A stretch of DNA of 51,857 nucleotides from a virus. Its lineage: Duplodnaviria; Heunggongvirae; Uroviricota; Caudoviricetes. How positions within the stretch are numbered: the stretch's first letter is position 1; every line of letters starts with the position of its first letter. The stretch covers positions 1-51,857 of IMG/VR virus record IMGVR_UViG_2925891887_000006; one strand, 5' to 3'. Shown here piece after piece: positions 3,928 to 51,857 of this stretch. Below the pieces are notes generated by a model that was given only the letters and a program-made list of their open reading frames with translations, did not search any database and had not been told where the DNA came from. Both the position numbers and the translations under genes were made by a program.

Positions 3928-6600
3928 TTAACCCGGCACCTCGCTGTTGAAGACATAGAGCCTGCGGGGATTCATCTCTGGCGGGCGAATGGTTGTCTGG
4001 AGTTTGCCATCAGTGGAGGGCAGCAGGTATCCACGATCTGCGCACAGACGCGCCACCTTGCGCGGGTCAAATCCCCTGCAGATTTCTTTCCAGCCGGACG
4101 GCATGACATAGAACGTAGTGACAGCTTCCGTGCCCTGCGCGGTACTGCCTTTCTCCACCCTGCGCCAGCCCACCATATTGCCGGGGCGGTTGCGCTCGTC
4201 ATACCAGTCTGCAAAGCGGCTGTACTGATTCGCGGTAAAGAAACTGCGAACCTGCTCCAGTGCGGCGATATCTTCCTGATTGGCGGTGTGCCCGCGATCT
4301 TTCAGCCATGCGTTCAGGCAGACGCGGGTTGCCCGCAGTGCTTCACCCTCAGGCCAGCCGGTGATACCCAGACGGGTTGCCAGTTCACCTGCCATCGCCA
4401 CCAGTGCAAAGCGGTTCACAGCCCGTCCCACCTGATTGCCTGCATCTTTCGGAGTCAGGGCGGCAGCATATTCCTTCATCAGCGATTTTGCCTGTGCCGT
4501 TAGTCCGTTAAGATCAGCGGTCAGTGCTTTCAGCCACTCCCGGAACGGCGAACCGTAGTAGCAGGACGTGGCCCATTCAAGATGCTCTGCCAGAGCCTTG
4601 CCGCTGTCGAAGCCGTGCAGCTCCTCAAAAACGCCAAACTTCCCGGAATCGCTGGGGATCTGGATCATCCTGACTTCCATCCCGGCAAAAGTACGCTCAC
4701 CGGCCTTTGCCGCATGTTCGGTCAGAGACAATTCGCCAGTTGAAAAGAACAACAGGCGCCACTGCTTACGGGTACGCAGCTCACCGTCCGTACCGGCACG
4801 GCCCTTGCCCTGACCGTTTGCCAGCATGTAGGCGATATTGCCTGCCTCGCGTCCGTCAACTTCCCGGATCTCATCAAGCATCATGGCGGCATCGTTGCGG
4901 CGGCTGGCGCATCCCTCCAGCGCGTTGCCGGTGGCCCGCCATGTCTGCCAGTAGTCAGGCCCGCCGCAGACGGAGGTTGCCGCTTTCATGGTGGTAGTCT
5001 TACCGTCTGTCGATTCCCCTTTGAGGTGGTAGCCGCCGCCGTCCATACCCACCAGCCGTAACAGTGGTGCAGCAAAGGCCAGGCTGACAGCAAATGCCAC
5101 GCGGGAGTTGCCGGTACAGTAGCGGGATACATGCTCCCGCCATTCCTCTGTTGTGCCCGACACGCGGAAATCACGCCCCTGCACGGAAGTGGTCTGGAGA
5201 ATGACACCCTCTGCACCTTCACCGCTGACCTCATCCTGCAGGACGTAAACCTGACCATGCCAGCCAGTACGACTGACGCAGGTCACGCGGCGTTCCGGTT
5301 TACACAGTGAGATATATTCCATCAGGCGTGCGCGTGCCTCACCGGTGGTGCTGATATAAGACAGCCCGTTAACCAGCAGTACCCGGCGCAGTTCCTCACC
5401 ACTGCCGCTCAGCATTTCCATCGGCATCGCCCAGCGGCGACACTCACCCCACGTATCTTCCCATTCCAGCAGTCGTCCGAAGTTACCGCCATCGGCATCG
5501 CAGGTGATTGCCGTCACACGCAGCGGGCTGCATATTTTGACGTTCTGGATCTCCGTCTCACCGTTGCGCTGTACCTGCTTTTCATACCAGAGATATTCCT
5601 GGGTAAGACGGAACCCGTGCGGCAGTTGCGTGCGGCCTTCCCCGCACAGTACCAGACCGTTGCGAAAGGCTTCACGGGCACGGGTAATACCATGCTCCCG
5701 ATGAAAGTCATTCCAGTCAGCCTTAATCTCTCCTGGTGGCAGCGTCATCCAGCCGCCAACAGATTTTGCCGCCCGTTCAGCAAAGGCTCTGCCGGGATTC
5801 TCCCCCCCGTCCTGAAAATCGTTATCACCGGCGATGATAATTTTTACCTCAGGCCAGCGTGCCCGCAGCGACTGCGCCACATTGGGCAGATTGCCCGCAG
5901 ATATGGCAGCCACTACGCATCCGGCAGTGAGCTGGCTTACCGTCAGCGCCGTAGCGTAACCTTCGGTAATCACCACCTGTACCGGTGGTTCAGACGGTAA
6001 CGGGCTGAGCGACACAAACGCGCCTTTCATCGTGCTGCCGGGCAGTATGCTTTTTTCACCCGTCGGGGCGATAAGCTGTGCACCGGTCACGGCTCCGGTA
6101 TTGGTCGTGAGTGGTAACAGCAGGGAACCGGCAGGAAAATCCTTACCGCTGATATGCTGCACGCTTCCGGTCAGAGAGGCCGGGTATCCGGCGAACCCTT
6201 TTCCTGTCAGATAGGCGCTTTCTCCCGTGTGGCTCTCTTTCATCAGCGCCGCCACGGTAAGACCCATGTCGCGTTTAGGGGCTTTTTGTCTGGCAGGCTT
6301 AACAGGCAGTTCCTGCACATCCGGCACATTAAGCATCTGCGCCACCTCCTGCGCAGCCTTTCTGACGCTGTAACCGGTTACGAGCTTAACCAGATCCAGA
6401 CCGTCACCATTGCCACACTGGCTGCAGATCCACGTCCCGCGCCCGTCAAGGTCATCAAGGCGAAAACGATCCTTGCCCCCACATTTCGGGCAGGGACCGT
6501 GCCTGCCGTTTTCAGGTACATCAATACGCAGCATCTGCAGAATAACGGGCCATTTCCCCCGCGCGGCGGCTGAAATCTGCGTAACCGTCTGTATTGTCAT
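3928..6600 (-). CDS. P4 alpha-type primase/helicase (N-terminal zinc ribbon, primase, P-loop helicase)
   Basis: 890 aa; CPKCGG...CSQCG zinc-binding motif; GESTDGKTT Walker A. Confidence 0.9.
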   Translation of the reverse strand: MTIQTVTQISAAARGKWPVILQMLRIDVPENGRHGPCPKCGGKDRFRLDDLDGRGTWICSQCGNGDGLDLVKLVTGYSVRKAAQEVAQMLNVPDVQELPVKPARQKAPKRDMGLTVAALMKESHTGESAYLTGKGFAGYPASLTGSVQHISGKDFPAGSLLLPLTTNTGAVTGAQLIAPTGEKSILPGSTMKGAFVSLSPLPSEPPVQVVITEGYATALTVSQLTAGCVVAAISAGNLPNVAQSLRARWPEVKIIIAGDNDFQDGGENPGRAFAERAAKSVGGWMTLPPGEIKADWNDFHREHGITRAREAFRNGLVLCGEGRTQLPHGFRLTQEYLWYEKQVQRNGETEIQNVKICSPLRVTAITCDADGGNFGRLLEWEDTWGECRRWAMPMEMLSGSGEELRRVLLVNGLSYISTTGEARARLMEYISLCKPERRVTCVSRTGWHGQVYVLQDEVSGEGAEGVILQTTSVQGRDFRVSGTTEEWREHVSRYCTGNSRVAFAVSLAFAAPLLRLVGMDGGGYHLKGESTDGKTTTMKAATSVCGGPDYWQTWRATGNALEGCASRRNDAAMMLDEIREVDGREAGNIAYMLANGQGKGRAGTDGELRTRKQWRLLFFSTGELSLTEHAAKAGERTFAGMEVRMIQIPSDSGKFGVFEELHGFDSGKALAEHLEWATSCYYGSPFREWLKALTADLNGLTAQAKSLMKEYAAALTPKDAGNQVGRAVNRFALVAMAGELATRLGITGWPEGEALRATRVCLNAWLKDRGHTANQEDIAALEQVRSFFTANQYSRFADWYDERNRPGNMVGWRRVEKGSTAQGTEAVTTFYVMPSGWKEICRGFDPRKVARLCADRGYLLPSTDGKLQTTIRPPEMNPRRLYVFNSEVPG

Positions 6601-41390: not shown

Positions 41391-42722
41391 ATGGCTACTT
41401 GGCAAGGAACAAACGGCGGATTGTTGGCTGGTATCGGCGGCGTCAACTCAAACGCTCCGAGCGTAAATGACATCGGCAATACGCTTCAGCTTATCAGGCA
41501 GAACAATGATATTGAGCGTTCAGGCGCTAACAATGTTGGGCTGACTGCTTTGCAAGGCCTTTCAGGTATTGCAGGGGTGTTTCAGCAGGAAAAGCAGGCT
41601 CAGCGGCAGAAAGAATTTCAGCAGGCGTACGCTAATGCTTATGCGTCTGGTGATCGCAGTGCTTTGCGTCAGTTGGCTACTCAATATCCAGACCAGATTG
41701 AATCCGTTCGTAAAGGCATGGGATTCATTGATGAAGATCAGCGTAATTCTATCGGCACCTTAGCGGCTGGCGCACGCCTTGCGTCATCGTCTCCAGAAGC
41801 AATGCAATCATGGCTGCAAAACAACGCCGGTGAGTTAGCTCGTGTTGGCGTTAATCCTCAGGACGTCGCTCAGATGTACCAACAGAACCCGCGGCAGTTC
41901 GGCGAATTTGTCGATCACCTGGGGATGAACAGTCTCGGACCCGAAAAATACTTTGATCTACAGGATAAAATGCAGGGTCGCCAGGTTACCATGCGCGGTC
42001 AGGATCTGGATTCGCAAACCGCCGCTCGGAATCAGGCAATCACAATGCGCGGGCAAGATATCCAGGCGAATTTAGGTCAGCAGCGCATTAATCTGGACGC
42101 AGAAACAAACCGCATTAACAACGAAAATAAGCGCCTTGACCGGATGCTATCAGCAGAAACTAACGACCTGAAGCGCCAGGAAATACAGAGCCGCATAGCA
42201 GCCAACAACCAGCAGTTGCAGCAGAAGCAGCAAGCGCTAAATGATGGCTACAAAGACGGCATCAACACCCTCACAACCAGCATGTTCACTCTGAACGATA
42301 TCGTTAGTTCTCCTTCACTTAAGAGCATTACAGGCTTACGTGGAGTAATCCCCAACGTTCCAGGCTCACAGGCTGCAGACACTCAGGCACGACTTGATAC
42401 CTTTAAATCCCAAGCATACCTGACAGCGGTTCAGGCCATGCGAGGCATGGGCGCACTTTCTGATGCCGAGGGCAAAAAGCTCGACCAGGCTGTTGGTTCG
42501 CTGCAGAACTCGCAGAGCGAGGAGTCCTTTCGTCGCAACGCTGGCGTCATCCTGAACACGCTCAACCAGAAGCGTAATGAGGCGGTTGGTAAGTACGTTC
42601 AGCAAAACGGTATCAAGCGAGTGGAAGCGCCTCAGGCTTCTATAGATTACCTGAAGCAGCACCCCGAGCTGTCAATCGACTTCATTAATCGCTACGGATA
42701 TCTTCCATCTTTGGGGCAGTAA
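41391..42722 (+). CDS. Ejection protein (P22 gp20-like)
   Basis: 443 aa; synteny and composition. Confidence 0.75.
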   Translation: MATWQGTNGGLLAGIGGVNSNAPSVNDIGNTLQLIRQNNDIERSGANNVGLTALQGLSGIAGVFQQEKQAQRQKEFQQAYANAYASGDRSALRQLATQYPDQIESVRKGMGFIDEDQRNSIGTLAAGARLASSSPEAMQSWLQNNAGELARVGVNPQDVAQMYQQNPRQFGEFVDHLGMNSLGPEKYFDLQDKMQGRQVTMRGQDLDSQTAARNQAITMRGQDIQANLGQQRINLDAETNRINNENKRLDRMLSAETNDLKRQEIQSRIAANNQQLQQKQQALNDGYKDGINTLTTSMFTLNDIVSSPSLKSITGLRGVIPNVPGSQAADTQARLDTFKSQAYLTAVQAMRGMGALSDAEGKKLDQAVGSLQNSQSEESFRRNAGVILNTLNQKRNEAVGKYVQQNGIKRVEAPQASIDYLKQHPELSIDFINRYGYLPSLGQ

Positions 42723-45491
42723 ATGGCTAATTACCGTGATTTGTTAGAGCAGGCTGGCGCACGTTACGGTGTGCCAGAAGGGTTGATGACTGCACTGGGT
42801 GCCAAGGAGTCTTCTTACAACCCTGCCGCAGTAAGCTCCGCCGGGGCTGTAGGATTGACTCAGGTCATGCCTGGGACATGGCGTGATATGGGTTATACCG
42901 ATGAGCAAATGCAAAACCCAGAATATCAGGCTGACGCTGGTGCGCGCTATCTGGCAAAGATGTACCAGCAGTTTGGTAACTGGCGTGACGCTCTTCAGGC
43001 TTATCACGACGGTCCCGGCAACGTTATGAAGGCAAAGCGTGGTGAATATACGCCAGGACCTGAAGGCCGCGGTTACGTTGATGAACGCTTTGCTCAATGG
43101 GCGGGTGACCCGGTGACAGACTCAACAGTCGAACAGCGCGCCACCTCTGCAAAGGTACATCCTCAGCAAGACCCTAACAACCCGTTTGCACAACTGGAAG
43201 CACAGTCATCCGAACAAGTATCGGCATCAGGCGTGCAGTCAGACCCAAATAATCCATTTGCTCAGATTGAGCAGCAGGCAGCCAGTCAGCAGCCACCTCA
43301 ACCCGTAAGTTCTGCCGCACCGAAACCTGTTCAGCAACAAACAGTTAATCAGGCCAATAATGAACCAGCACGTGAAGAACCATCATTGATGCAACAAGCT
43401 GGCGATTGGCTCACAGGTGGTCAAAGTGCAGGGCAAATTGCAGAGCAGGCTGGTCGTGGTCTGGTAAACATACCATTTGACGTATTGCAGGGTGGCGCGA
43501 GTCTGATTAATGCAATCAGTCAGGGGCTTGGTGGGCCAAAAGTATTGGATGATGTCTATCGTCCAGTCGACCGACCGACAGATCCTTACGCGCAAGCTGG
43601 AGAGTCAATAGGCGGTTATCTTGTTCCTGGAGCAGGTGTAACTGGAAACATGGTCATTGGTTCTCTCGCTGACGCGGCGAATCAACGGGGTGATTTTGCC
43701 GAAAATGCCGCTATTAATGCCGGACTTAACATTGCTACGCATGGCCTGATAAATGGCGTTACCCATGGTGTTCGTGGTGCATCAAATATAATTAGTGGCA
43801 ATAAAACATCTGCACAGAGAGCGACCACTGCGGCAACAGAAACATCACCATTCTCCGGTACTGCGCCAACAGAAACATCACCATTCTCCGGTGATGCCGC
43901 TGCAGCAACAAATCCTGCGGTTCATGCCGCAGAGGCAAGAGCAGCACAAGGTGTACCAATGACGCCTGCGACGAGGGACCCAGAGGAGGTCGTCCGCACA
44001 GTAGCAGCACAAAAAAGGCCAAATCTCGCTTCATCGCTTGATGAACTAGATATCAATCCTCAGGCTGAAGTTCTGGAGTCTGCTGAAAGGCTTAATGTTG
44101 ATTCATTACTCCCTTCACACTTTTCCGGGAACGAGCAATACAAGGCAGTTGAGCAAGCAATCAAGTCCCGTGCGGGTTCTGCTCTACGGGTGCAGGAAAA
44201 TGAAGCAATCAGGCAACTAGCACAGGGCGCGGGGGAGATAATTGATCGCGTTTCCGGTGCAAAAGATGCTCTTGGTATGAGCGACAAGTTTATTGATACG
44301 ATCAATGGAAGAATGTCTGCGCTGATGAAACGAAGCGACCAGCTTTATCGCAATGTTGAAAAGGCGATGCCTGCAGGTGCAAAAATTGATGCGCCATCAA
44401 CAAGGTCAATGCTCAAACAGGTGGCAGAAGATCTTGGCGGGATGAAAAACCTTGACCCTATTGAAAAGAGAGTCTTTCGGGCAGTTAATCCAGGCAAGAA
44501 CGGCGCATTAACTTATGCAAATCTCAATAAGCAACGACGACTTGTTGGTGATGCACTTCATAAGAAGTCTGGACCATATAAAGATGCTGATCGCGCTGCT
44601 TTATCGAGGCTTTACGGTTCGCTCGCCGATGATCAAAAGACGGCGCTGTCAGAGACAAATGCATTACGTGATTTTGAAGTTGCTCAGAGGCTTGTTCAGA
44701 TGCGAAAAAGCATGGAAGAGCAAATGATTAATCTAACTGGCAGAACGCTGAACGGTGATGTTTCTCGCAAAGCAACTACAGCACTACAGGCAATGTCGAA
44801 AGGCGATGCCAAAGGATTTCGTGAATTGATGCAAAACACGCCGTCCAGGAAGCTAAGAACCGAGCTACTGGGAACAGGTCTTCGGGATATGCTTTCGAAC
44901 GGAAAACGTGGCGCTGATTTTAATCCTGCAGGGTTTGCTGACTGGTATCAAAACATGTTAGCAAACGGGCAGATGCGCAATCTTGCCCGACATTTACCAA
45001 AAGAGACTATGTCAGGTCTGAACGATGTATATAAGGTCGCAAAGGCTATCAAAGATGCAAAATCTTACGAGATAACTACAGGAAGACTAAACGAGTTCGT
45101 CAAACGGTTTAATCGCGTCACTGCGGCAAATGAATTTGTTGCTAACCATGCCCAACGCATTGGCACTGCGGTTGGTTCAACTGTGTCAGGACCGTTCAGT
45201 GCAGTAGGTGCTGTTGCTGGGTCAGAAATTGGGGCAAAAGTCGCCAGCAAAATCAGGGCGATGGGCGGCGCTGCATCAATGGAATCTGCAGAAAAGCTAA
45301 TTAGCTCACCAGAATTCCAGAAAGCAGCAAGGCTGGCAGTAAAACAAGCACCAGAAAGCATCGTTGATACAACTGTAAGACGCTCTTCTGCTTGGCGCTC
45401 GTTTTACAACTCACTTCCAGAATCAGATAAGAAAACCATATCAAGGCTAGGCATCATGTACTGGATGAACAGTGATGATAACCAGAAGTAA
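42723..45491 (+). CDS. Ejection protein (gp16-like) fused to N-terminal lytic transglycosylase (SLT) domain
   Basis: 922 aa; N-terminal [27 protein letters not shown] is an SLT signature. Confidence 0.8.
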
Positions 45492-45673
45492 CGGAAAGCC
45501 ACGGATGGTTAGCTGCTGTCTTTTTTATATAGCTCTTTGAGCGTATCAAAGACAATTTTCTTAACCATATCAGATTGTTGGTCTGCAATACGCGATGCTA
45601 TTGGTAGCGATGAATTCAATCGCTTGTCGAGAGCTGGTATTGTCGCCTCGTTAAGCGGTATGAATGAATAGCT

Positions 45674-46057
45674 TTATCTAATGTTGCTGCTACTGTTGCA
45701 TGTGACGGTGTTTCCAAATCCTGAATTGCAGTTTGTATATGTGTCAACGCGCGTTGGGTAAGGTTGAGTTATAACAGGCTGGCGCGCTTTTTGCTCGATC
45801 GCTTGCATTGTGTTTACAGCCTGATAATTCAATAAAGCCTGCTGGAATGCTTGGCTTTGCGCTATTTGTTGGGCTTGTTCTTGGCTTTGTAATTGAACAT
45901 AAAGATTCTGAAGCTCAAGTCTTGCCTGTGCGTCACTTATCTTGCCTTCATCTACACCTTGCCCGAGCATCTTTGCAGCAAGGACATACAGCTTAGGTGT
46001 TGGTGCTGATGCCATGCGTGAGTCGTTCTTCACACTGGCATCAAGGCAATTAGCCAT
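45674..46057 (-). CDS. Hypothetical Q-rich protein; same frame continues after its TAA into an Mnt-C-terminus-like segment (45509..45673)
   Basis: 127-aa ORF; downstream in-frame 54 codons end ...VKKIVFDTLKELYKK, resembling the C-terminal region of P22 Mnt as recalled. Confidence 0.35.
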   Translation of the reverse strand: MANCLDASVKNDSRMASAPTPKLYVLAAKMLGQGVDEGKISDAQARLELQNLYVQLQSQEQAQQIAQSQAFQQALLNYQAVNTMQAIEQKARQPVITQPYPTRVDTYTNCNSGFGNTVTCNSSSNIR

Positions 46058-46069
46058 ATCGCTAAGCTT

Positions 46070-47017
46070 TTGATAGCGTTGTTCGCAACTTGCTTGATAG
46101 TCACTTACTTTTGCGCATCCAACCAGCAGAAGCTTGGTAAGGTTGCTGATAACGAGACTATTTCAAAACTTCAGTCATATCGTGATGAGCTTGTTCGCAA
46201 TGCTGGCCCTGATGGTCCGGTAAATCTGGATTTGAAGCAATTAAGCGACCTGCGCAGCCAGTTCAGAATGGACGTGAAGGGTGAGCGACCAGTGTTACCA
46301 AACCGTTCCGATGCCGCCATTCAGCGCGTTTACAAGGCAATGACTGACGATATCAATGGTGCCATTGGTCAGAATCTTGGCAACGATACTCTACGTAAAT
46401 ATCAGCAGGCCAATGCCGTCTACGCTGACGAAGCGGCGAAACTAAAGAATACCAGGCTGAAGAATGTTCTCATGAAAGGCGACCTGACGCCGGAAGTTGT
46501 CAACAACATGCTATTCAGCAAGAACAAATCGGAAATTAAGACGCTGTATAACTCAGTTGGTCGTGTTGGCAGGGCGCAAATGCGCAATGGCATCATTGGA
46601 AAGGCGATGGAGAAATCAGGTGGTTCCCCTGACCAGTTCCTTCGACAGCTTAACATCCTGCAAAACCAGACTGGCATCACATTTAAAGGTCAGGATGCTG
46701 CTTATCTGAAAGGATTGAAAAACTACCTGCAATCCACGCAGCAGGCTGCAAAAGCGGCAGTAACAACACCAACAGGGCAGCAAACCATCCCGTTCATTAT
46801 CGGATATGGGACGGCAATGAACCCGGCGACAACTGGTGCAGCAGTAAGCTACGGACTTCTTACTCGCGCCTATGAGAGCGAACTATTCAGAAATGCAATG
46901 CTCCGAATGGCAAATACCCCACGCGGATCAACAGCGTTTGAGAAAGCCATGCAGCAGGCGCAAAAGGCCATTAACGCCCTGACTCAGGGTGCCAAGTCTG
47001 ATGCGTTGTCATGGTAA
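46070..47017 (+). CDS. Partial paralogue of the ejection-protein C-terminal region (possible gene remnant; no ATG start)
   Basis: 315-aa ORF starting at TTG; motif SDAAIQRVYKAMTDD parallels [17 protein letters not shown] in the 922-aa protein. Confidence 0.35.
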   Translation: MIALFATCLIVTYFCASNQQKLGKVADNETISKLQSYRDELVRNAGPDGPVNLDLKQLSDLRSQFRMDVKGERPVLPNRSDAAIQRVYKAMTDDINGAIGQNLGNDTLRKYQQANAVYADEAAKLKNTRLKNVLMKGDLTPEVVNNMLFSKNKSEIKTLYNSVGRVGRAQMRNGIIGKAMEKSGGSPDQFLRQLNILQNQTGITFKGQDAAYLKGLKNYLQSTQQAAKAAVTTPTGQQTIPFIIGYGTAMNPATTGAAVSYGLLTRAYESELFRNAMLRMANTPRGSTAFEKAMQQAQKAINALTQGAKSDALSW

Positions 47018-47208
47018 TGTAGATGTAAATTACAGTTAAAAATTAAATTGCTATGGAGTTGATTGAGCTTTTTGCTTACATTAATGCAAATTTTCTGCAT
47101 TAATGTGTGTTTAATATGAATAGAAGATCATTTTTCAAATCAATAGCGTCATTTGTAGCATTAACTCCATTATCTTCTTTATCAAACATGTCTAATAGGA
47201 TTGCACAC

Positions 47209-49341
47209 ATGACTAATATAACACCAAATGTGGTTATAGGAATGCCTTCGCAACTTTTCACTATGGCGCGTTCTTTTAAAGCCGTAGCCAATGGCAAAAT
47301 TTATATCGGTAAAATTGACACTGACCCGGTAAATCCAGAAAACCAGATCCAGGTTTATGTGGAGAACGAAGATGGCTCTCATGTTCCTGTTTCTCAACCA
47401 ATCATCATTAACGCTGCTGGTTATCCGGTATATAACGGACAGATTGCCAAATTCGTTACCGTGCAAGGCCATTCTATGGCTGTATACGATGCGTATGGAG
47501 CGCAGCAGTTCTATTTTCCTAATGTGCTGAAGTATGATCCTGATCAGTTAAGGCAGGAGCTTTCTGCAAAAAGAGGCTCATCACTAATCACATACACAAA
47601 TCCAAATGGCCCAGGAGTTCCTATGCCTTTGGATGTGCGCGTTGGGCAAACTTATTTTATGTCTGATTATGGTGTATCCCCATCTTCGACGGCAGAAGAG
47701 AATACTGCAAGGATTAACTCGGTATTTTCGTCACTAGGCGGGAAACCTTTCATTACCCAATTTGTTTTTGATTGCAAAGGGGTTGTGCTAATAAACGGTT
47801 CTTTACTGCTAAAAAACAATATGGATATATTGATTCACGTAGGAACAGAGATTAGAAACGTTGCTGGCACAAACAGACCTGTATTTATCAGTGAGTATTG
47901 GTTCAAGACCATATCAAGCCCTTCAGATTTGACTCAAAAATCTGATTATCTCGGGATTCGTGGTGGCGGCATTATAAATTATAACAAATCAGGCACTGCC
48001 CCTGGAGGGCTTAATACCCATGCTGTCTGTATAGCCGGTGTTAAAAGGTTAAAACTTGGTGGTAATTTAAAAGTCGGTGGTGCGTTTAAATACGCGTATC
48101 TCGTTGCGAATATCGATTATTTAGATGCTCAAAACTTGGAGTTTGATAACGGGTCAGATGGGCTTCACCTCCAACCTCCAATTTACCATGCTTATGTGCG
48201 AAATCTACGAGGGCATACTGGCGATGATTTATTTGCAATGACTGGCGGTGATTACAGTTCATATGATTTAGGTACTCGTGGAGACTTCTCGTTTATCGAT
48301 GTTGAGGGGCTATTTAATGACAATACCCTTTGCGCTGTAAAACTTGCTGGCAATGCAGGTGTGGAATTTAAACACGTAACAGTACGCGGCATTCACGGAA
48401 CATGTCAGCATGCTCCGGTAAGAATTTGGGCTGATCATAACCTAACAAAAACAACGGTTAAATACGCAGGATTTGATGATATATCCGCTATTCCTGGAAA
48501 GGGCCATGCACTGTGTGAAATTTACGACCGTGGCCTGGGCGAAGTGTTTGCTGATCAAGTGGTAGTGGAGGGTGTATCTACTAACTTAACTAATATATCC
48601 ACGCCTGTTGTTGACGTTAGGGGGTCTGTTGGTGTCACTGTTTATAACTTAGACATGGATGTGCCAAGAAATTCTAAGTTTGGATTCGCATGTGGTGATG
48701 GATCTGGAAATGATAAATCAAGAATCTTTAACGTTAATATCAAGTCAAAAAATACTTCGTTAAGTGCTGACCAATACAGTTCATTATGTCTGGTTACTCG
48801 TGGCGTTGTGGACAACGTAATTCTCAGCGGAGCGGTGGACCATAAATCGGCGGCGACCCTTGTTCAGCATCGTGGAGGAACCCTGAAGAACATAACCGTT
48901 AATAATATTACATATTCAAACGGTCACGTATTTAGGCAGTTTGTGGCTAATTCTGATAACTCAACTCCTACGCTGCACCTAAATAATCTAATTGGCACAA
49001 ATAGCGGGAAACTTGCTTTATTCCATAAAGGAGGTGTAGTTTCAGCAAATAATGTTACACTGCTATCAACAAGTGGAAATCCGATAGAGACTACAGAGTC
49101 TGGGATTGTGGATATTTATGGTTCTATTAACTACGGGAATTCTCTAATACCATCAACTAAAGAGGATGGATTTTATTACAGAGCTTATGGATTTGGCCTA
49201 GCAGTTGATGCTTCAAATCTCCAAAGATACGGTGTTCAGTTTTGCAAAAATTCAAATCCTTCATTTTCAACAGGAGTTGGGTTAATAGCTTTTGCTGAAG
49301 GTACAGGATGGAAGAATATAGTAACAGGAAATTTGGGATAG
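47209..49341 (+). CDS. Tailspike protein with P22-like head-binding domain and divergent receptor-binding domain
   Basis: From MTNITPNVV: [34 protein letters not shown] matches the P22 gp9 N-terminal domain; remainder AT-rich and divergent. Confidence 0.85.
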
Positions 49342-49455
49342 ATATTAATTGTGATTCTTAATAATAGTATTTTCTGAAGAAACTTACTTAAATAATCAAG
49401 CACAAAGCCTTGCACTGGTTTGCAAGGCTTTGTGTCATTCGCTAGTTAAGGTTTA

Positions 49456-50613
49456 TCACTCCACCTTTTCATCAAGCCAGTCCGCCCACCACTGCATCAT
49501 TTCTCTGCGCTTATCGAGATACTGAGCATGGTTGTAAATCCCGCGCACAGATCCGCCGTTGGCATGTGCAAGTTGCACTTCAATAGCGTCAGCAGGCCAT
49601 TCGTGCTCGTTCATAATCGTGCTGAATTCATGCCTGAATCCGTGACCGCTTTCCAGACCTTCATAGCCGATTTGTTTGATCACAAGCAATACCGCGTTCT
49701 CGCAGATTGGCTTCTTCTTATCGTTGCGCCCGGCAAAAACAAACTCTGATACTGGTTTAGTGATGGAGCTTAGCGTAGTGAGAAGTTCAACCACCTGGTC
49801 TGACATCGGGACCACATGAATTTTGCGTCCTTTCATCACACTGGCGTCGATGGTGATAATCCTGTTTTCAAAATCGACGTTCTTCCATAGCATGGAACGA
49901 AGCTCTTTCGTTCTTAGGGCAGTGTAGCGTAAAACTTTGGTCGCAATGAGCGATACGATACTTCCTGAAAATGTTGCCAGTGCTTTGTTGAATGCCGGGA
50001 TCTGGTCTGCAGGAAGAAACGGGAAGTTCTTCTTGCGGTATCCCTTCATGGCGTCAGCAAGGTCAGGTGCCGGGTTATATTTAGCCCTACCAGTGACAAT
50101 AGCGTAACGAAAAACCTCGCCGCATCTTCTGCGGGCTTTGTTGGCTCGCTCCATTGCACCGCGATCTTCAAATCTGCGGATTACTTCCAGCAGTTGCATC
50201 GGCTCAATATCCTGAATCTCAAGGCCGCCGATGATGGGTAAAATGTCGTCATCAAACATTTTGGCAAGTTCAGTTGCATAGCCTACTGACCAGACTTGCT
50301 TCTTGTGCTCGTACCATTCCTTGTAAATCGCACTAAAGGAATTGTTGTTAGACGAAGCCTTTTTCGCTTTTACCGGATCGATGCCAACCGAGATGTCTTT
50401 CCTCGCGGTCCATGCTTTATCTCTTGCCTCCTGCAAAGTCATTAGCGGATATTTTCCTACGGTCAGGATTTTCTCCTTACCGTCAATCTTGTAGCGAAGC
50501 TGCCATACCTTTTTCCCTGACACAGGGACATAAAGGTACAGGCCATTACCATCGAGAAGGCGGTATGGTTTTTCTTTCGGCTTTGCTGCTTCAATCTGCT
50601 TAACGGTGAGCAT
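49456..50613 (-). CDS. intS: Tyrosine integrase, IntS type, adjacent to argW
   Basis: Start at MLTVKQIEAAK (internal Met of ORF 49456..50649); matches E. coli IntS as recalled. Confidence 0.85.
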   Translation of the reverse strand: MLTVKQIEAAKPKEKPYRLLDGNGLYLYVPVSGKKVWQLRYKIDGKEKILTVGKYPLMTLQEARDKAWTARKDISVGIDPVKAKKASSNNNSFSAIYKEWYEHKKQVWSVGYATELAKMFDDDILPIIGGLEIQDIEPMQLLEVIRRFEDRGAMERANKARRRCGEVFRYAIVTGRAKYNPAPDLADAMKGYRKKNFPFLPADQIPAFNKALATFSGSIVSLIATKVLRYTALRTKELRSMLWKNVDFENRIITIDASVMKGRKIHVVPMSDQVVELLTTLSSITKPVSEFVFAGRNDKKKPICENAVLLVIKQIGYEGLESGHGFRHEFSTIMNEHEWPADAIEVQLAHANGGSVRGIYNHAQYLDKRREMMQWWADWLDEKVE

Positions 50614-50774
50614 GGGTAAAAATCCGGTGGGTAAAATTATTTTATCCACTTTTTACCCGTCATGGAGTGCGGCTGTCAACGATCTGACGCGAACCATGAC
50701 GAACTGCGAATCTACGGAAGGCTTGATATTCAGGGGATTTTGCGGACTGGTACGGATGAGAGCGAACTGATAAA

Positions 50775-50849
50775 TGGTGTCCCCTGCAGGAATCGAACCT
50801 GCAATTAGCCCTTAGGAGGGGCTCGTTATATCCATTTAACTAAGAGGAC
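50775..50849 (-). tRNA. argW: tRNA-Arg (anticodon CCU)
   Basis: Minus-strand GTCCTCTTAGTTAAATGGATATAACGAGCCCCTCCTAAGGGCTAATTGCAGGTTCGATTCCTGCAGGGGACACCA; cloverleaf with CCU anticodon and encoded CCA. Confidence 0.92.
50777..50789. repeat. att core within the 3' end of argW (GTGTCCCCTGCAG)
   Basis: Identical 13-mer at 10873..10885. Confidence 0.6.
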
Positions 50850-50924
50850 AATGCGGCATGAGTATACCCGCTAATGGACTGCGGGGTAAGTACGCTGCCG
50901 CTCGATTGCTTAAACCCTCGCCAT

Positions 50925-51857
50925 TTATGCTGGGTTTTTATCATTTTTCTTAATGTTTTCCGCACGTTCTGCTTTTTGGCGTGCTTCTGCTTTACGCTTG
51001 TTGCTCATGTCGTTACGAATCTGTGCATGACTCATTAACGCGAAGATAAAGGTGCCGCCGCAGATGTTCCCCGCTAAAGTAGGTAGTGCGAAGGGCCAGA
51101 TGAAATCGCTCCAGTGCAGCGTGCCGTTAAACACCAGATAGAGGATTTCAACAGAACCGACAACGATGTGGGTGGTGTCACCCAGTGCAATAAGCCAGGT
51201 CATCAATATAATCACCACAATCTTTGCCGCACCCGCAGCAGGAAACATCCAAACCATAGTGGCGATCAGCCAGCCGGAAATGATCGCGTTGGCAAACATC
51301 TCGCTGGGGGTGTTCTTCATCACATCCATGCCGATTTTGACAAATGCATCGCGAGTTTCTTCATTGAAGATAGGCATATATTCAAATGCCCATGCAGCAA
51401 TACCTGTCCCGAGAATATTACCCAGCAGCACGACGCCCCATAATCGCATAAGTAAGCCGACGTTGCTCATTGTCGGTTTTTGCATGACGGGTAGTACCGC
51501 AGTCACGGTGTTTTCGGTAAATAATTGCTGGCGGGCCATAATGACGATAATAAAACCAAAGGTATAACCGAGATTCTCCAGTAAGAAGCTGCCTGGCACT
51601 CCTTCCAGTTCGACATGAAATATCCCTTTTGCCAGTAGCGAAGCGCCCATCGACAGACCCGCCGCAATGGCTGACCACAGTAGCGCCATTGCGTCGCGTT
51701 CCAGCTCTTTTTCACCATCCTGGCGGATATGCTCATGAATTGCCATCGCCCGGGAGGGGAGTCGGTCTTCATCTATTTCTATTTTTTTGCCGCGCTCTTT
51801 TTCTTCGCTCTCAACTTCAATTTCGTCGCTGTGTTGATCAATTTTGTCGTTGTCCAT
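50925..51857 (-). CDS. yfdC: Inner-membrane formate/nitrite-transporter-family protein YfdC (host gene)
   Basis: 310-aa multi-TM ORF; matches E. coli YfdC as recalled and the known yfdC-argW-intS synteny. Confidence 0.8.
   Translation of the reverse strand: MDNDKIDQHSDEIEVESEEKERGKKIEIDEDRLPSRAMAIHEHIRQDGEKELERDAMALLWSAIAAGLSMGASLLAKGIFHVELEGVPGSFLLENLGYTFGFIIVIMARQQLFTENTVTAVLPVMQKPTMSNVGLLMRLWGVVLLGNILGTGIAAWAFEYMPIFNEETRDAFVKIGMDVMKNTPSEMFANAIISGWLIATMVWMFPAAGAAKIVVIILMTWLIALGDTTHIVVGSVEILYLVFNGTLHWSDFIWPFALPTLAGNICGGTFIFALMSHAQIRNDMSNKRKAEARQKAERAENIKKNDKNPA

Follow-up and report, generated by a model that had tools for sequence, protein, structure and literature searches.

The window analysed here, a stretch of 51,857 nucleotides (nt) given by the IMG/VR virus record IMGVR_UViG_2925891887_000006, has the look of a complete P22-like (Lederbergvirus) prophage of Escherichia coli. 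Its segment 45492-47017, between the ejection genes and the tailspike gene, is very probably non-functional debris, consisting of four gene fragments in alternating orientation which at least two illegitimate (microhomology-mediated) recombination events between P22-like genomes would have left in the slot of the immunity I (immI) module. The original prediction, made from the letters of the DNA, had described a recombination scar where an immI module was replaced, and this description has stood: we find fragments of four genes, two joints with microhomology and two parental arms. The comparison set included phages and 5,426 complete E. coli genomes, IMG/VR contigs, and a GTDB collection with one genome per species.

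Three ejection proteins of 231, 443, and 922 amino acids (aa) are encoded 5′ of the scar and belong, according to Pfam and PHROG, to the gp7, gp20, and gp16 types. The third gene (42723-45491, plus strand) is intact and is the functional gp16 gene upstream of the scar. Its product has an N-terminal SLT lytic transglycosylase domain (Pfam SLT, 3.4e-25) and matches PHROG 21143 and PHROG 770, "DNA transfer protein" (4e-160); the DNA from 42001 to 45593 is 97.8% identical to phage Sf101. In P22-like phages the slot between gene 16 and gene 9 holds immI, or the "ant moron", in the order sieA-hkcC-mnt-arc-ant-sar; this slot is highly variable, and some phages, for example HK620 and Scho1, carry degraded genes in it (PMC2629481). 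The gene order of the window matches this slot, so that the position first assigned to the region was right. The usual order in E. coli prophages is gp16 (plus strand), lipoprotein (minus), mnt (minus), and tailspike (plus), sometimes with extra morons or arc-ant.

The first fragment (45509-45598, minus strand) is the end of an mnt gene of the Sf101 type, its last ~28 codons with the stop, which Pfam recognizes as Repressor_Mnt. It had been noticed through a Q-rich minus-strand open reading frame (ORF) of 127 aa (45674-46057), closed by a TAA at 45674-45676, beyond which the frame stays open for 54 codons and ends in SDMVKKIVFDTLKELYKKDSS and a stop. All of these are present, and the resemblance of the end to the Mnt C-terminus is real: residues 26-50 of the 54-codon tail, and no other part, match Repressor_Mnt (PF11423, E=8.2e-13), and 19 of 26 positions are identical to P22 Mnt. 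The last 23 residues are identical to Sf101 gp14, a full protein of 97 aa with both Arc and Mnt Pfam domains. The remnant keeps the C-terminal tetramerisation helix alone; the ribbon-helix-helix (Arc/RHH) domain is gone, and nucleotide homology ends at ~45598. The same remnant is called an Arc-family pseudogene by the Prokaryotic Genome Annotation Pipeline (PGAP) in E. coli WCHEC050613. No intact mnt was found by tblastn anywhere in the window, and tblastn queries with two Arc and two Ant sequences of E. coli prophages gave no match across the whole of it.

The 54 codons do not, as had been proposed, form a single Mnt frame. Codons 1-26 of this tail read the 3′ end of another gp16 allele on the opposite strand, which makes the in-frame link between the 127-aa ORF and the Mnt tail accidental. 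The allele is the third in the region and makes up the second fragment (45585-45671, plus strand), the last 28 codons and TAG, ending in AIRDAIGSDEFNRLSRAGIVASLSGMNE. It corresponds to the 3′ end of a 704-aa gp16 gene which is intact in E. coli FHI_NMBU_03, where it ends in AIRDAIGSDEFNRLSRAGIVASLSGMNEYE, and to which the remnant is 95-98% identical. We also considered the 80 base pairs (bp) 45594-45673 as a diverged mnt allele, to which a tblastn alignment had stretched over 54 aa, and rejected this; the extra residues were at chance identity, and this DNA is 95-98% identical to the gp16 3′ end on the opposite strand. At 45655-45671 the gp16 remnant lacks 6 bp, a single ATGAAT unit of GGTATGAATGAATATGAATAG, that PK8217, WCHEC050613, and FHI_NMBU_03 have; this is consistent with slippage in a fragment freed from selection.

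The third fragment (45674-46133, minus strand) consists of 460 nt, the 3′ part of a lipoprotein gene (161 aa, PHROG 6067) which is widespread in prophages. The 127-aa ORF, first seen as part of an interrupted Mnt-like frame, is unrelated to Mnt and is an internal-ATG reading of this truncated gene. The fragment is 98.3% identical to nt 3992-4451 of the E. coli GPEC1292 locus (L006), where the intact gene occupies 3992-4477; the intact lipoprotein matches PHROG 6067 at 1.6e-110. Intact copies start with MKKSLLIIPLLLVGC, and their signal peptide with lipobox reads MKKSLLIIPLLL(V/A)GC. In the window copy approximately the first 10 codons are gone, with the start codon, MKKSLLIIP, and so the n- and h-regions of the signal peptide; the sequence sets in at LLLVGC. 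There is no ATG, GTG, or TTG in the codons that precede LLLVGC, which come from antisense gp16. A PHROG 6067 lipoprotein has a start codon and n- and h-regions with the lipobox L-x-G-C, and this set is incomplete in the window copy. Where the locus is intact, mnt and other genes of the same orientation stand upstream of the lipoprotein gene, with the promoter region beyond them; here all this is replaced by antisense gp16. As to function, the lipoprotein found nothing in Pfam, PADLOC, or PDB sequences, and in NCBIfam it hit GspK alone, below threshold (18.9 bits against a cut-off of 130).

The fourth fragment (46117-47017, plus strand) comprises the last 298 codons and the stop of a gp16 gene of the Sf6 type, and is the real content of a 315-aa ORF (46070-47017) that had been described as having no ATG and as beginning 13 bp away from the 127-aa ORF; both are correct, the distance being counted from the ATG of that ORF. 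The start of this ORF is a mechanical TTG, and its first 16 codons (46070-46116) are the antisense of the lipoprotein fragment; homology to intact genes begins at 46117. The fragment is 96-97% identical to Sf6 gene 13, IME10, and Gally (96.6% for Sf6) and 99.4% identical to E. coli MS6192. Residues 17-314 match positions 344-665 of the 668 in PHROG 770 (2.7e-117), short of the full length of the family, and the fragment has no start codon of its own. The proposed kinship with the 922-aa ejection protein is real but distant, because both match PHROG 770; a pairwise BLASTP comparison of the two was not significant (E=0.1).

How were these fragments brought together? At the older joint the mnt remnant meets the remnant of the third gp16 allele over a microhomology of ~9 bp, GC(C/A)ATACGC. 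The joint of mnt, gp16, and lipoprotein sequences is fully covered in at least six E. coli genomes, namely PK8217, WCHEC050613, and four enterotoxigenic strains, and there an intact lipoprotein gene and a complete mnt-arc-ant module come after it. Judging from this distribution, the older joint is inherited. We considered a tandem duplication to account for a block order mnt-lipoprotein-gp16 and rejected it, as the inherited order is mnt-gp16-lipoprotein, and one further event therefore suffices. In another locus (L090, ~2700-2790, IMG/VR 2681813316_000024) the gp16 end of Sf101 type is followed by a shorter mnt remnant of ~10 codons, joined to other DNA upstream of a tailspike leader of variant e; this points to an independent joint within the same few mnt bases.

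The young joint lies at 46117-46133, where the homologies of the two arms overlap by 17 nt. Its sequence is ATCCAACC(A/T)GCAGAAGC; at 16 of its 17 positions the lipoprotein gene, at its 5′ end (ATCCAACCAGCAGAAGC), has the same base as the middle of gp16 (ATCCAACCTGCAGAAGC). To the left, 43327-46133 forms a single continuous alignment with E. coli PK8217 (98.3% over 2,813 bp); to the right, 46117-51230 does so with E. coli MS6192 (99.4% over 5,114 bp) and runs through the tailspike, intS, tRNA-Arg(CCU)/argW, and yfdC. The comparison with related prophages that the original prediction had called for thus gave a left arm in PK8217, a right arm in MS6192, and the older joint in at least six genomes. 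None of the 5,426 complete E. coli genomes contains the young joint, nor did an exact-match scan of the GTDB set find it. Features at the right end of the window are the tailspike gene (47209-49341, plus strand), an integrase gene of the intS type (49456-50649, minus strand), tRNA-Arg(CCU) (50775-50849), and then yfdC; the argW insertion site is the same as that of the equivalent prophage in MS6192.

From these alignments the following scenario may be proposed. An older event would have joined the 3′ end of mnt to the last 28 codons of a gp16 gene. A single, younger, and recent event, in this genome alone, would then have joined lipoprotein codon ~10 to the middle of gp16 of an MS6192-like prophage, crossing where 16/17 bp happened to agree. 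This event would have removed the signal sequence of the lipoprotein, mnt, arc, ant, and the tailspike that stood there originally, and the gain would have been an MS6192-like right arm carrying the 3′ half of gp16, the spacer with a palindrome, a leader, the tailspike, and intS, next to argW/yfdC. Probably an incoming phage exchanged DNA with a prophage resident at argW, or the exchange preceded integration, and a phage Rad52-like recombinase may have aided it. Such recombinases tolerate short diverged homology, and exchange between an infecting temperate phage and a resident prophage at short diverged homology is documented and depends largely on them (PMC3945230). The half gp16 would be harmless baggage because the left arm supplies a complete gp16. 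In the MS6192 locus (L011, 2190-4013) PGAP flags gp16 as incomplete, with the N-terminus missing, and the MS6192 prophage may already be defective, which would fit the role of a resident donor of the tailspike arm.

We infer that the 127-aa and 315-aa ORFs are pseudogene fragments and are not expressed as useful proteins, because the start, n-region, and upstream DNA have been lost, no immI genes are present, and no promoter is predicted. A scan for sigma-70-like promoters on both strands of 45400-47300 gave 0 sites against 3.5 expected, and an Rfam scan of 45300-47400 found no family, with one sub-threshold chance match. Several points weigh against this view of the region as debris. Both long fragments keep open frames and are 98-99% identical to intact genes, and therefore sequence decay gives no proof of death. 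Late-operon transcription cannot arrive at the tailspike without crossing the plus-strand fragments; transcripts of the gp16 fragment are therefore probable, and they could be translated at a low level from an internal or a non-ATG start. No single record was found for the exact left parent, in which an intact lipoprotein gene would stand behind the 922-aa gp16, and the order and setting of the events are reconstructed.

It had been suggested that the 127-aa ORF could be a functional new gene riding on old immI regulatory signals. Indeed, the frame is open from an ATG, with 98% identity to the matching part of the intact gene, and the product would be a soluble, Q-rich protein without a signal peptide. 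We nevertheless regard the suggestion as very improbable. What it reads is the rear part of a lipoprotein gene severed at codon ~10, without start codon or the n- and h-regions of the signal peptide; the upstream DNA with the mnt promoter region has been exchanged for antisense gp16, in which no promoter-like site is predicted; and no further complete E. coli genome shows the arrangement, hence there is no sign of selection for it. The idea that the TAA at 45674-45676 is a sequencing error or a recent nonsense mutation within one longer Mnt-like gene has practically no chance and is already refuted by the alignments, since, for all that the frame is uninterrupted apart from that codon and ends in a bona fide Mnt C-terminus, the TAA is the native stop of the lipoprotein gene, kept in every intact homologue examined (GPEC1292, Gally, PK8217, and others), the 26 codons right after it are antisense gp16, and intact Mnt proteins of this type have 83-97 aa with an N-terminal Arc/RHH domain that is absent here.

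To the right of the debris, the AT-rich spacer 47018-47208 (27.7% GC) contains the perfect 11-bp inverted repeat that had been reported, ACATTAATGCA-N7-TGCATTAATGT, at 47078-47106. Each arm holds the self-complementary CATTAATG, and the repeat ends 9 nt before the ATG of the tailspike leader described below. The palindrome is statistically unusual and unlikely to be due to chance: perfect 11-bp repeats with a loop of up to 10 nt occur at two places in the window, whereas first-order Markov simulation produces 0.1 of them per window on average, and 0.3% for the AT-rich spacer of 191 bp around the palindrome. The other such repeat is a strong hairpin at 49402-49433 with a 14-bp stem (49401-49434, CACAAAGCCTTGCA / TGCAAGGCTTTGTG, 6-nt loop), which lies between the convergent tailspike and integrase genes and is probably a bidirectional terminator. 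In 17 E. coli genomes the DNA of 47005-47230 is 98.7-100% identical (100% in 4 of the 17), and the palindrome is identical in all of them as well as in four IMG/VR contigs. In the nearest diverged allele (L046, 93.5% overall) ~14 of the same 44 bp are substituted, and no repeat compensates for this. The exact arms ACATTAATGCA / TGCATTAATGT recur in two unrelated IMG/VR contigs, L094 (11632-11660) and L098 (754-785), which hints at a recurring binding-site motif; in L094 the repeat is longer (TACATTAATGCATA...TATGCATTAATGTA), with a further ATGCATTTAATGTA nearby.

The palindrome may be an operator, a weak attenuator, or a by-product of mutation. As an RNA hairpin it could act as a weak terminator or attenuator of late transcription into the tailspike gene, or could modulate initiation at the leader ATG. 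In an intrinsic (rho-independent) terminator a G+C-rich stem-loop has a U tract directly behind it. A stem of 12 pairs (~-12.8 kcal/mol) followed by the tail TGTTTAAT passes a simple scan as a weak terminator-like site, the other perfect 11-bp repeat of the window is a terminator-like hairpin after the tailspike, and the ant moron of P22 is thought to affect read-through into the tailspike gene (PMC2629481), which we counted in favor. However, the stem is AU-rich with 3 G-C pairs, the U tract is poor (5/8 T), the fold of the 86-nt context is unexceptional (z=-1.4), and the hairpin is conserved neither in L046 nor in leader variants c to e, so that a role as an RNA hairpin seems doubtful to us.

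A protein-binding operator for a promoter before the leader is a further candidate, and the statistical rarity of the palindrome speaks for it. In the immI module, the Mnt/Arc operator is an inverted repeat that overlaps two divergent promoters and adjoins the gene of its repressor. The sequence GTTGAT(T/C/A) stands 57-60 nt 5′ of the leader ATG in 5/5 leader variants (here in the region 47059-47087, with equivalents in L046, L093, L036, L082, and L040), and 17 nt after it comes a -10-like hexamer, TAATGC, TACTAC, TAAAAT, or CATGAT. In the window this hexamer, TAATGC at 47082-47087, falls within the left arm, which is a typical operator layout, and the same arms occur in the two unrelated viral contigs, in one case with an extra half-site. 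GTTGAT and the hexamer could thus form a dedicated tailspike promoter. Against this, the hexamer is poor here and the promoter scan of 45400-47300 was empty; the GTTGAT/-10-like signal is not significant against AT-rich shuffles, which give as many promoter-like sites as the single one of phage JEP4. No Mnt, Arc, or other candidate repressor was identified, mnt, arc, and ant being absent from the window, and the repeat is not kept among the ~14 substitutions of L046. We therefore hold an operator function to be unlikely.

The most interesting lead is the leader, which is the one unusual feature beside the scar. From its conventional ATG at 47209, with a Shine-Dalgarno-like AGGA 8-9 nt upstream, the tailspike gene encodes 710 aa with a head-binding domain of the P22 type (Pfam Head_binding, 1e-65), and PGAP takes this start in MS6192. 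Directly before it, at 47116-47208 (plus strand), 31 codons with a twin-arginine-type motif (RRxFFK) stand in frame with the tailspike, with no stop between. Five diverged variants of this leader, of 31-32 codons, were found, all in frame with the head-binding domain and all keeping the RR motif: MNRRSFFK... in two forms, (M/V)NRRLFFK..., MDRRLFFK..., and MKRRTLLK.... The motif N/D/K-R-R-x-[FL]-[FL]-K is invariant in the five variants, the core is weakly hydrophobic and rich in Ser, Thr, and Ala, and an R or K stands near the end.

Signals of the twin-arginine translocation (Tat) pathway have the consensus (S/T)-R-R-x-F-L-K, a weakly hydrophobic h-region, and a basic residue in the c-region, and on direct reading the leader has these features. 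The Tat profiles of Pfam (PF10518) and NCBIfam (TIGR01409) gave no match at E<=10 to the three leader variants searched, while the controls, CueO (25.9 bits) and SufI (16.4 bits), were positive. The substitution pattern indicates that the leader is coding and under purifying selection: dN/dS is 0.2-0.3, in the most diverged alignable pair the proportion of synonymous differences (pS) is 0.61 against 0.22 for nonsynonymous ones (pN; Fisher p=0.001), and no frame but that of the leader stays open throughout the variants. We considered whether the selection signal was an artefact of an ORF on the opposite strand that shares the wobble positions, and rejected this, as the antisense frame has stops in variants b, d, and e.

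The leader was found only in a subset of E. coli P22-like phages and prophages: 12 of the best 80 IMG/VR tailspike loci, ~45 of the 5,426 E. coli genomes, and 0 of 34 loci in Enterobacterales species other than E. coli. The tailspikes behind it have at least eight different lengths, from 615 to 910 aa. It is present in the isolated phage JEP4, whose GenBank coding sequence begins at the leader ATG. Loci carrying it are the window (47116-47208), L012 (2509-2601), L093 (3509-3601), L040/L090, L046, and L082. In JEP4 (L093, 3319-3357), and also in L012, L036, L054, L069, and L082, the first six codons of a tailspike of the Sf6 type (ATGACAGATATTATAAAT...) are preserved in a 12-codon stub, followed by ~170 nt of very AT-rich DNA and then by the leader and a new head-binding domain. 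This stub is a further scar and shows that the leader module came in as a block.

As the leader is coding, kept in five variants, tied to at least eight tailspike lengths, and present in JEP4, it is possible, and we propose it tentatively, that the tailspike gene yields two proteins in one frame: the virion form from the ATG at 47209, and a minor long form from 47116, which would be exported as a folded depolymerase by the Tat pathway and might trim O-antigen or another surface glycan in the periplasm. In the periplasm of a lysogen or of an infected cell, the long form might have a receptor-destroying or conversion function, and the palindrome and the GTTGAT element could be its control region. 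An exported tailspike as a general replacement for the conversion genes gtr and oac, which are found neither in the window prophage nor in that of MS6192, was considered and rejected, because other leader loci carry acetyltransferase or acyltransferase genes after the tailspike. We found no description in the literature of a signal peptide or Tat signal on P22-like tailspikes, and tailspikes are unmentioned in the paper on JEP4. Should the leader indeed bring about export of a tailspike isoform, this would be a new route for a prophage to remodel the surface glycans of its host, by means of the receptor-destroying enzyme of its own virion.

In other prophages the slot holds assorted morons adjoining the lipoprotein gene, as in L009 (E. 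coli WCHEC050613, 4275-5566), L008 (4122-4436), and L002 (5112-5531): an immunity protein of the Rap1a/Tai family, an XhlA-family protein, a second small secreted protein, and a second lipoprotein. The PADLOC defence models gave zero matches for the slot morons of these three loci.

The scar offers a clean and dated example of how temperate-phage mosaics form, with two nested joints, visible microhomology, and identifiable arms, in which the tailspike and integration module appears to have been exchanged as a block with a resident-type prophage arm. For annotation, both sizeable ORFs are better called pseudogene fragments than hypothetical proteins.

For the leader, the nearest analogue is WceF of Pantoea stewartii, a trimeric beta-helix glycanase with tailspike fold which bears a Tat signal; the Tat pathway exports folded proteins (PMC7949094). 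Both are tailspike-fold enzymes behind a twin-arginine-type signal. In contrast to the leader-bearing tailspike, WceF is bacterial and has no head-binding domain, whereas here the leader precedes a virion head-binding domain and the internal conventional start is retained; moreover, the leader is not recognized by Tat hidden Markov models, and its export is a prediction from sequence.

With the immI "ant moron" of P22 (PMC2629481) the region shares the slot, a true remnant of the Mnt C-terminus, and the tendency towards degraded genes and unrelated morons expressed in the lysogen. It differs in having no functional component, being made of pieces of four genes, two of them from ejection-protein genes that normally lie outside the moron, and in its young joint, which was not met elsewhere. 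In the arrangement of Sf6 and MS6192, gp16 stands directly before the tailspike and immI is absent. From 46117 rightward the window is identical to it in plan (99.4% to MS6192), but only the 3′ half of that gp16 is present, and the functional gp16 is a different allele upstream. Joints in temperate-phage mosaics have been attributed to illegitimate or to relaxed Rad52-like recombination (both views in PMC3945230). The homology at the present joints (16/17 bp and ~9 bp) is far shorter than the hundreds of diverged bp tested experimentally there. As in known mosaic joints, otherwise unrelated sequences are fused, the leftovers are tolerated, and no essential gene is broken; one arm is continuous with the host flank, as expected for exchange with a resident prophage. 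The scar is ordinary for this known hot spot.

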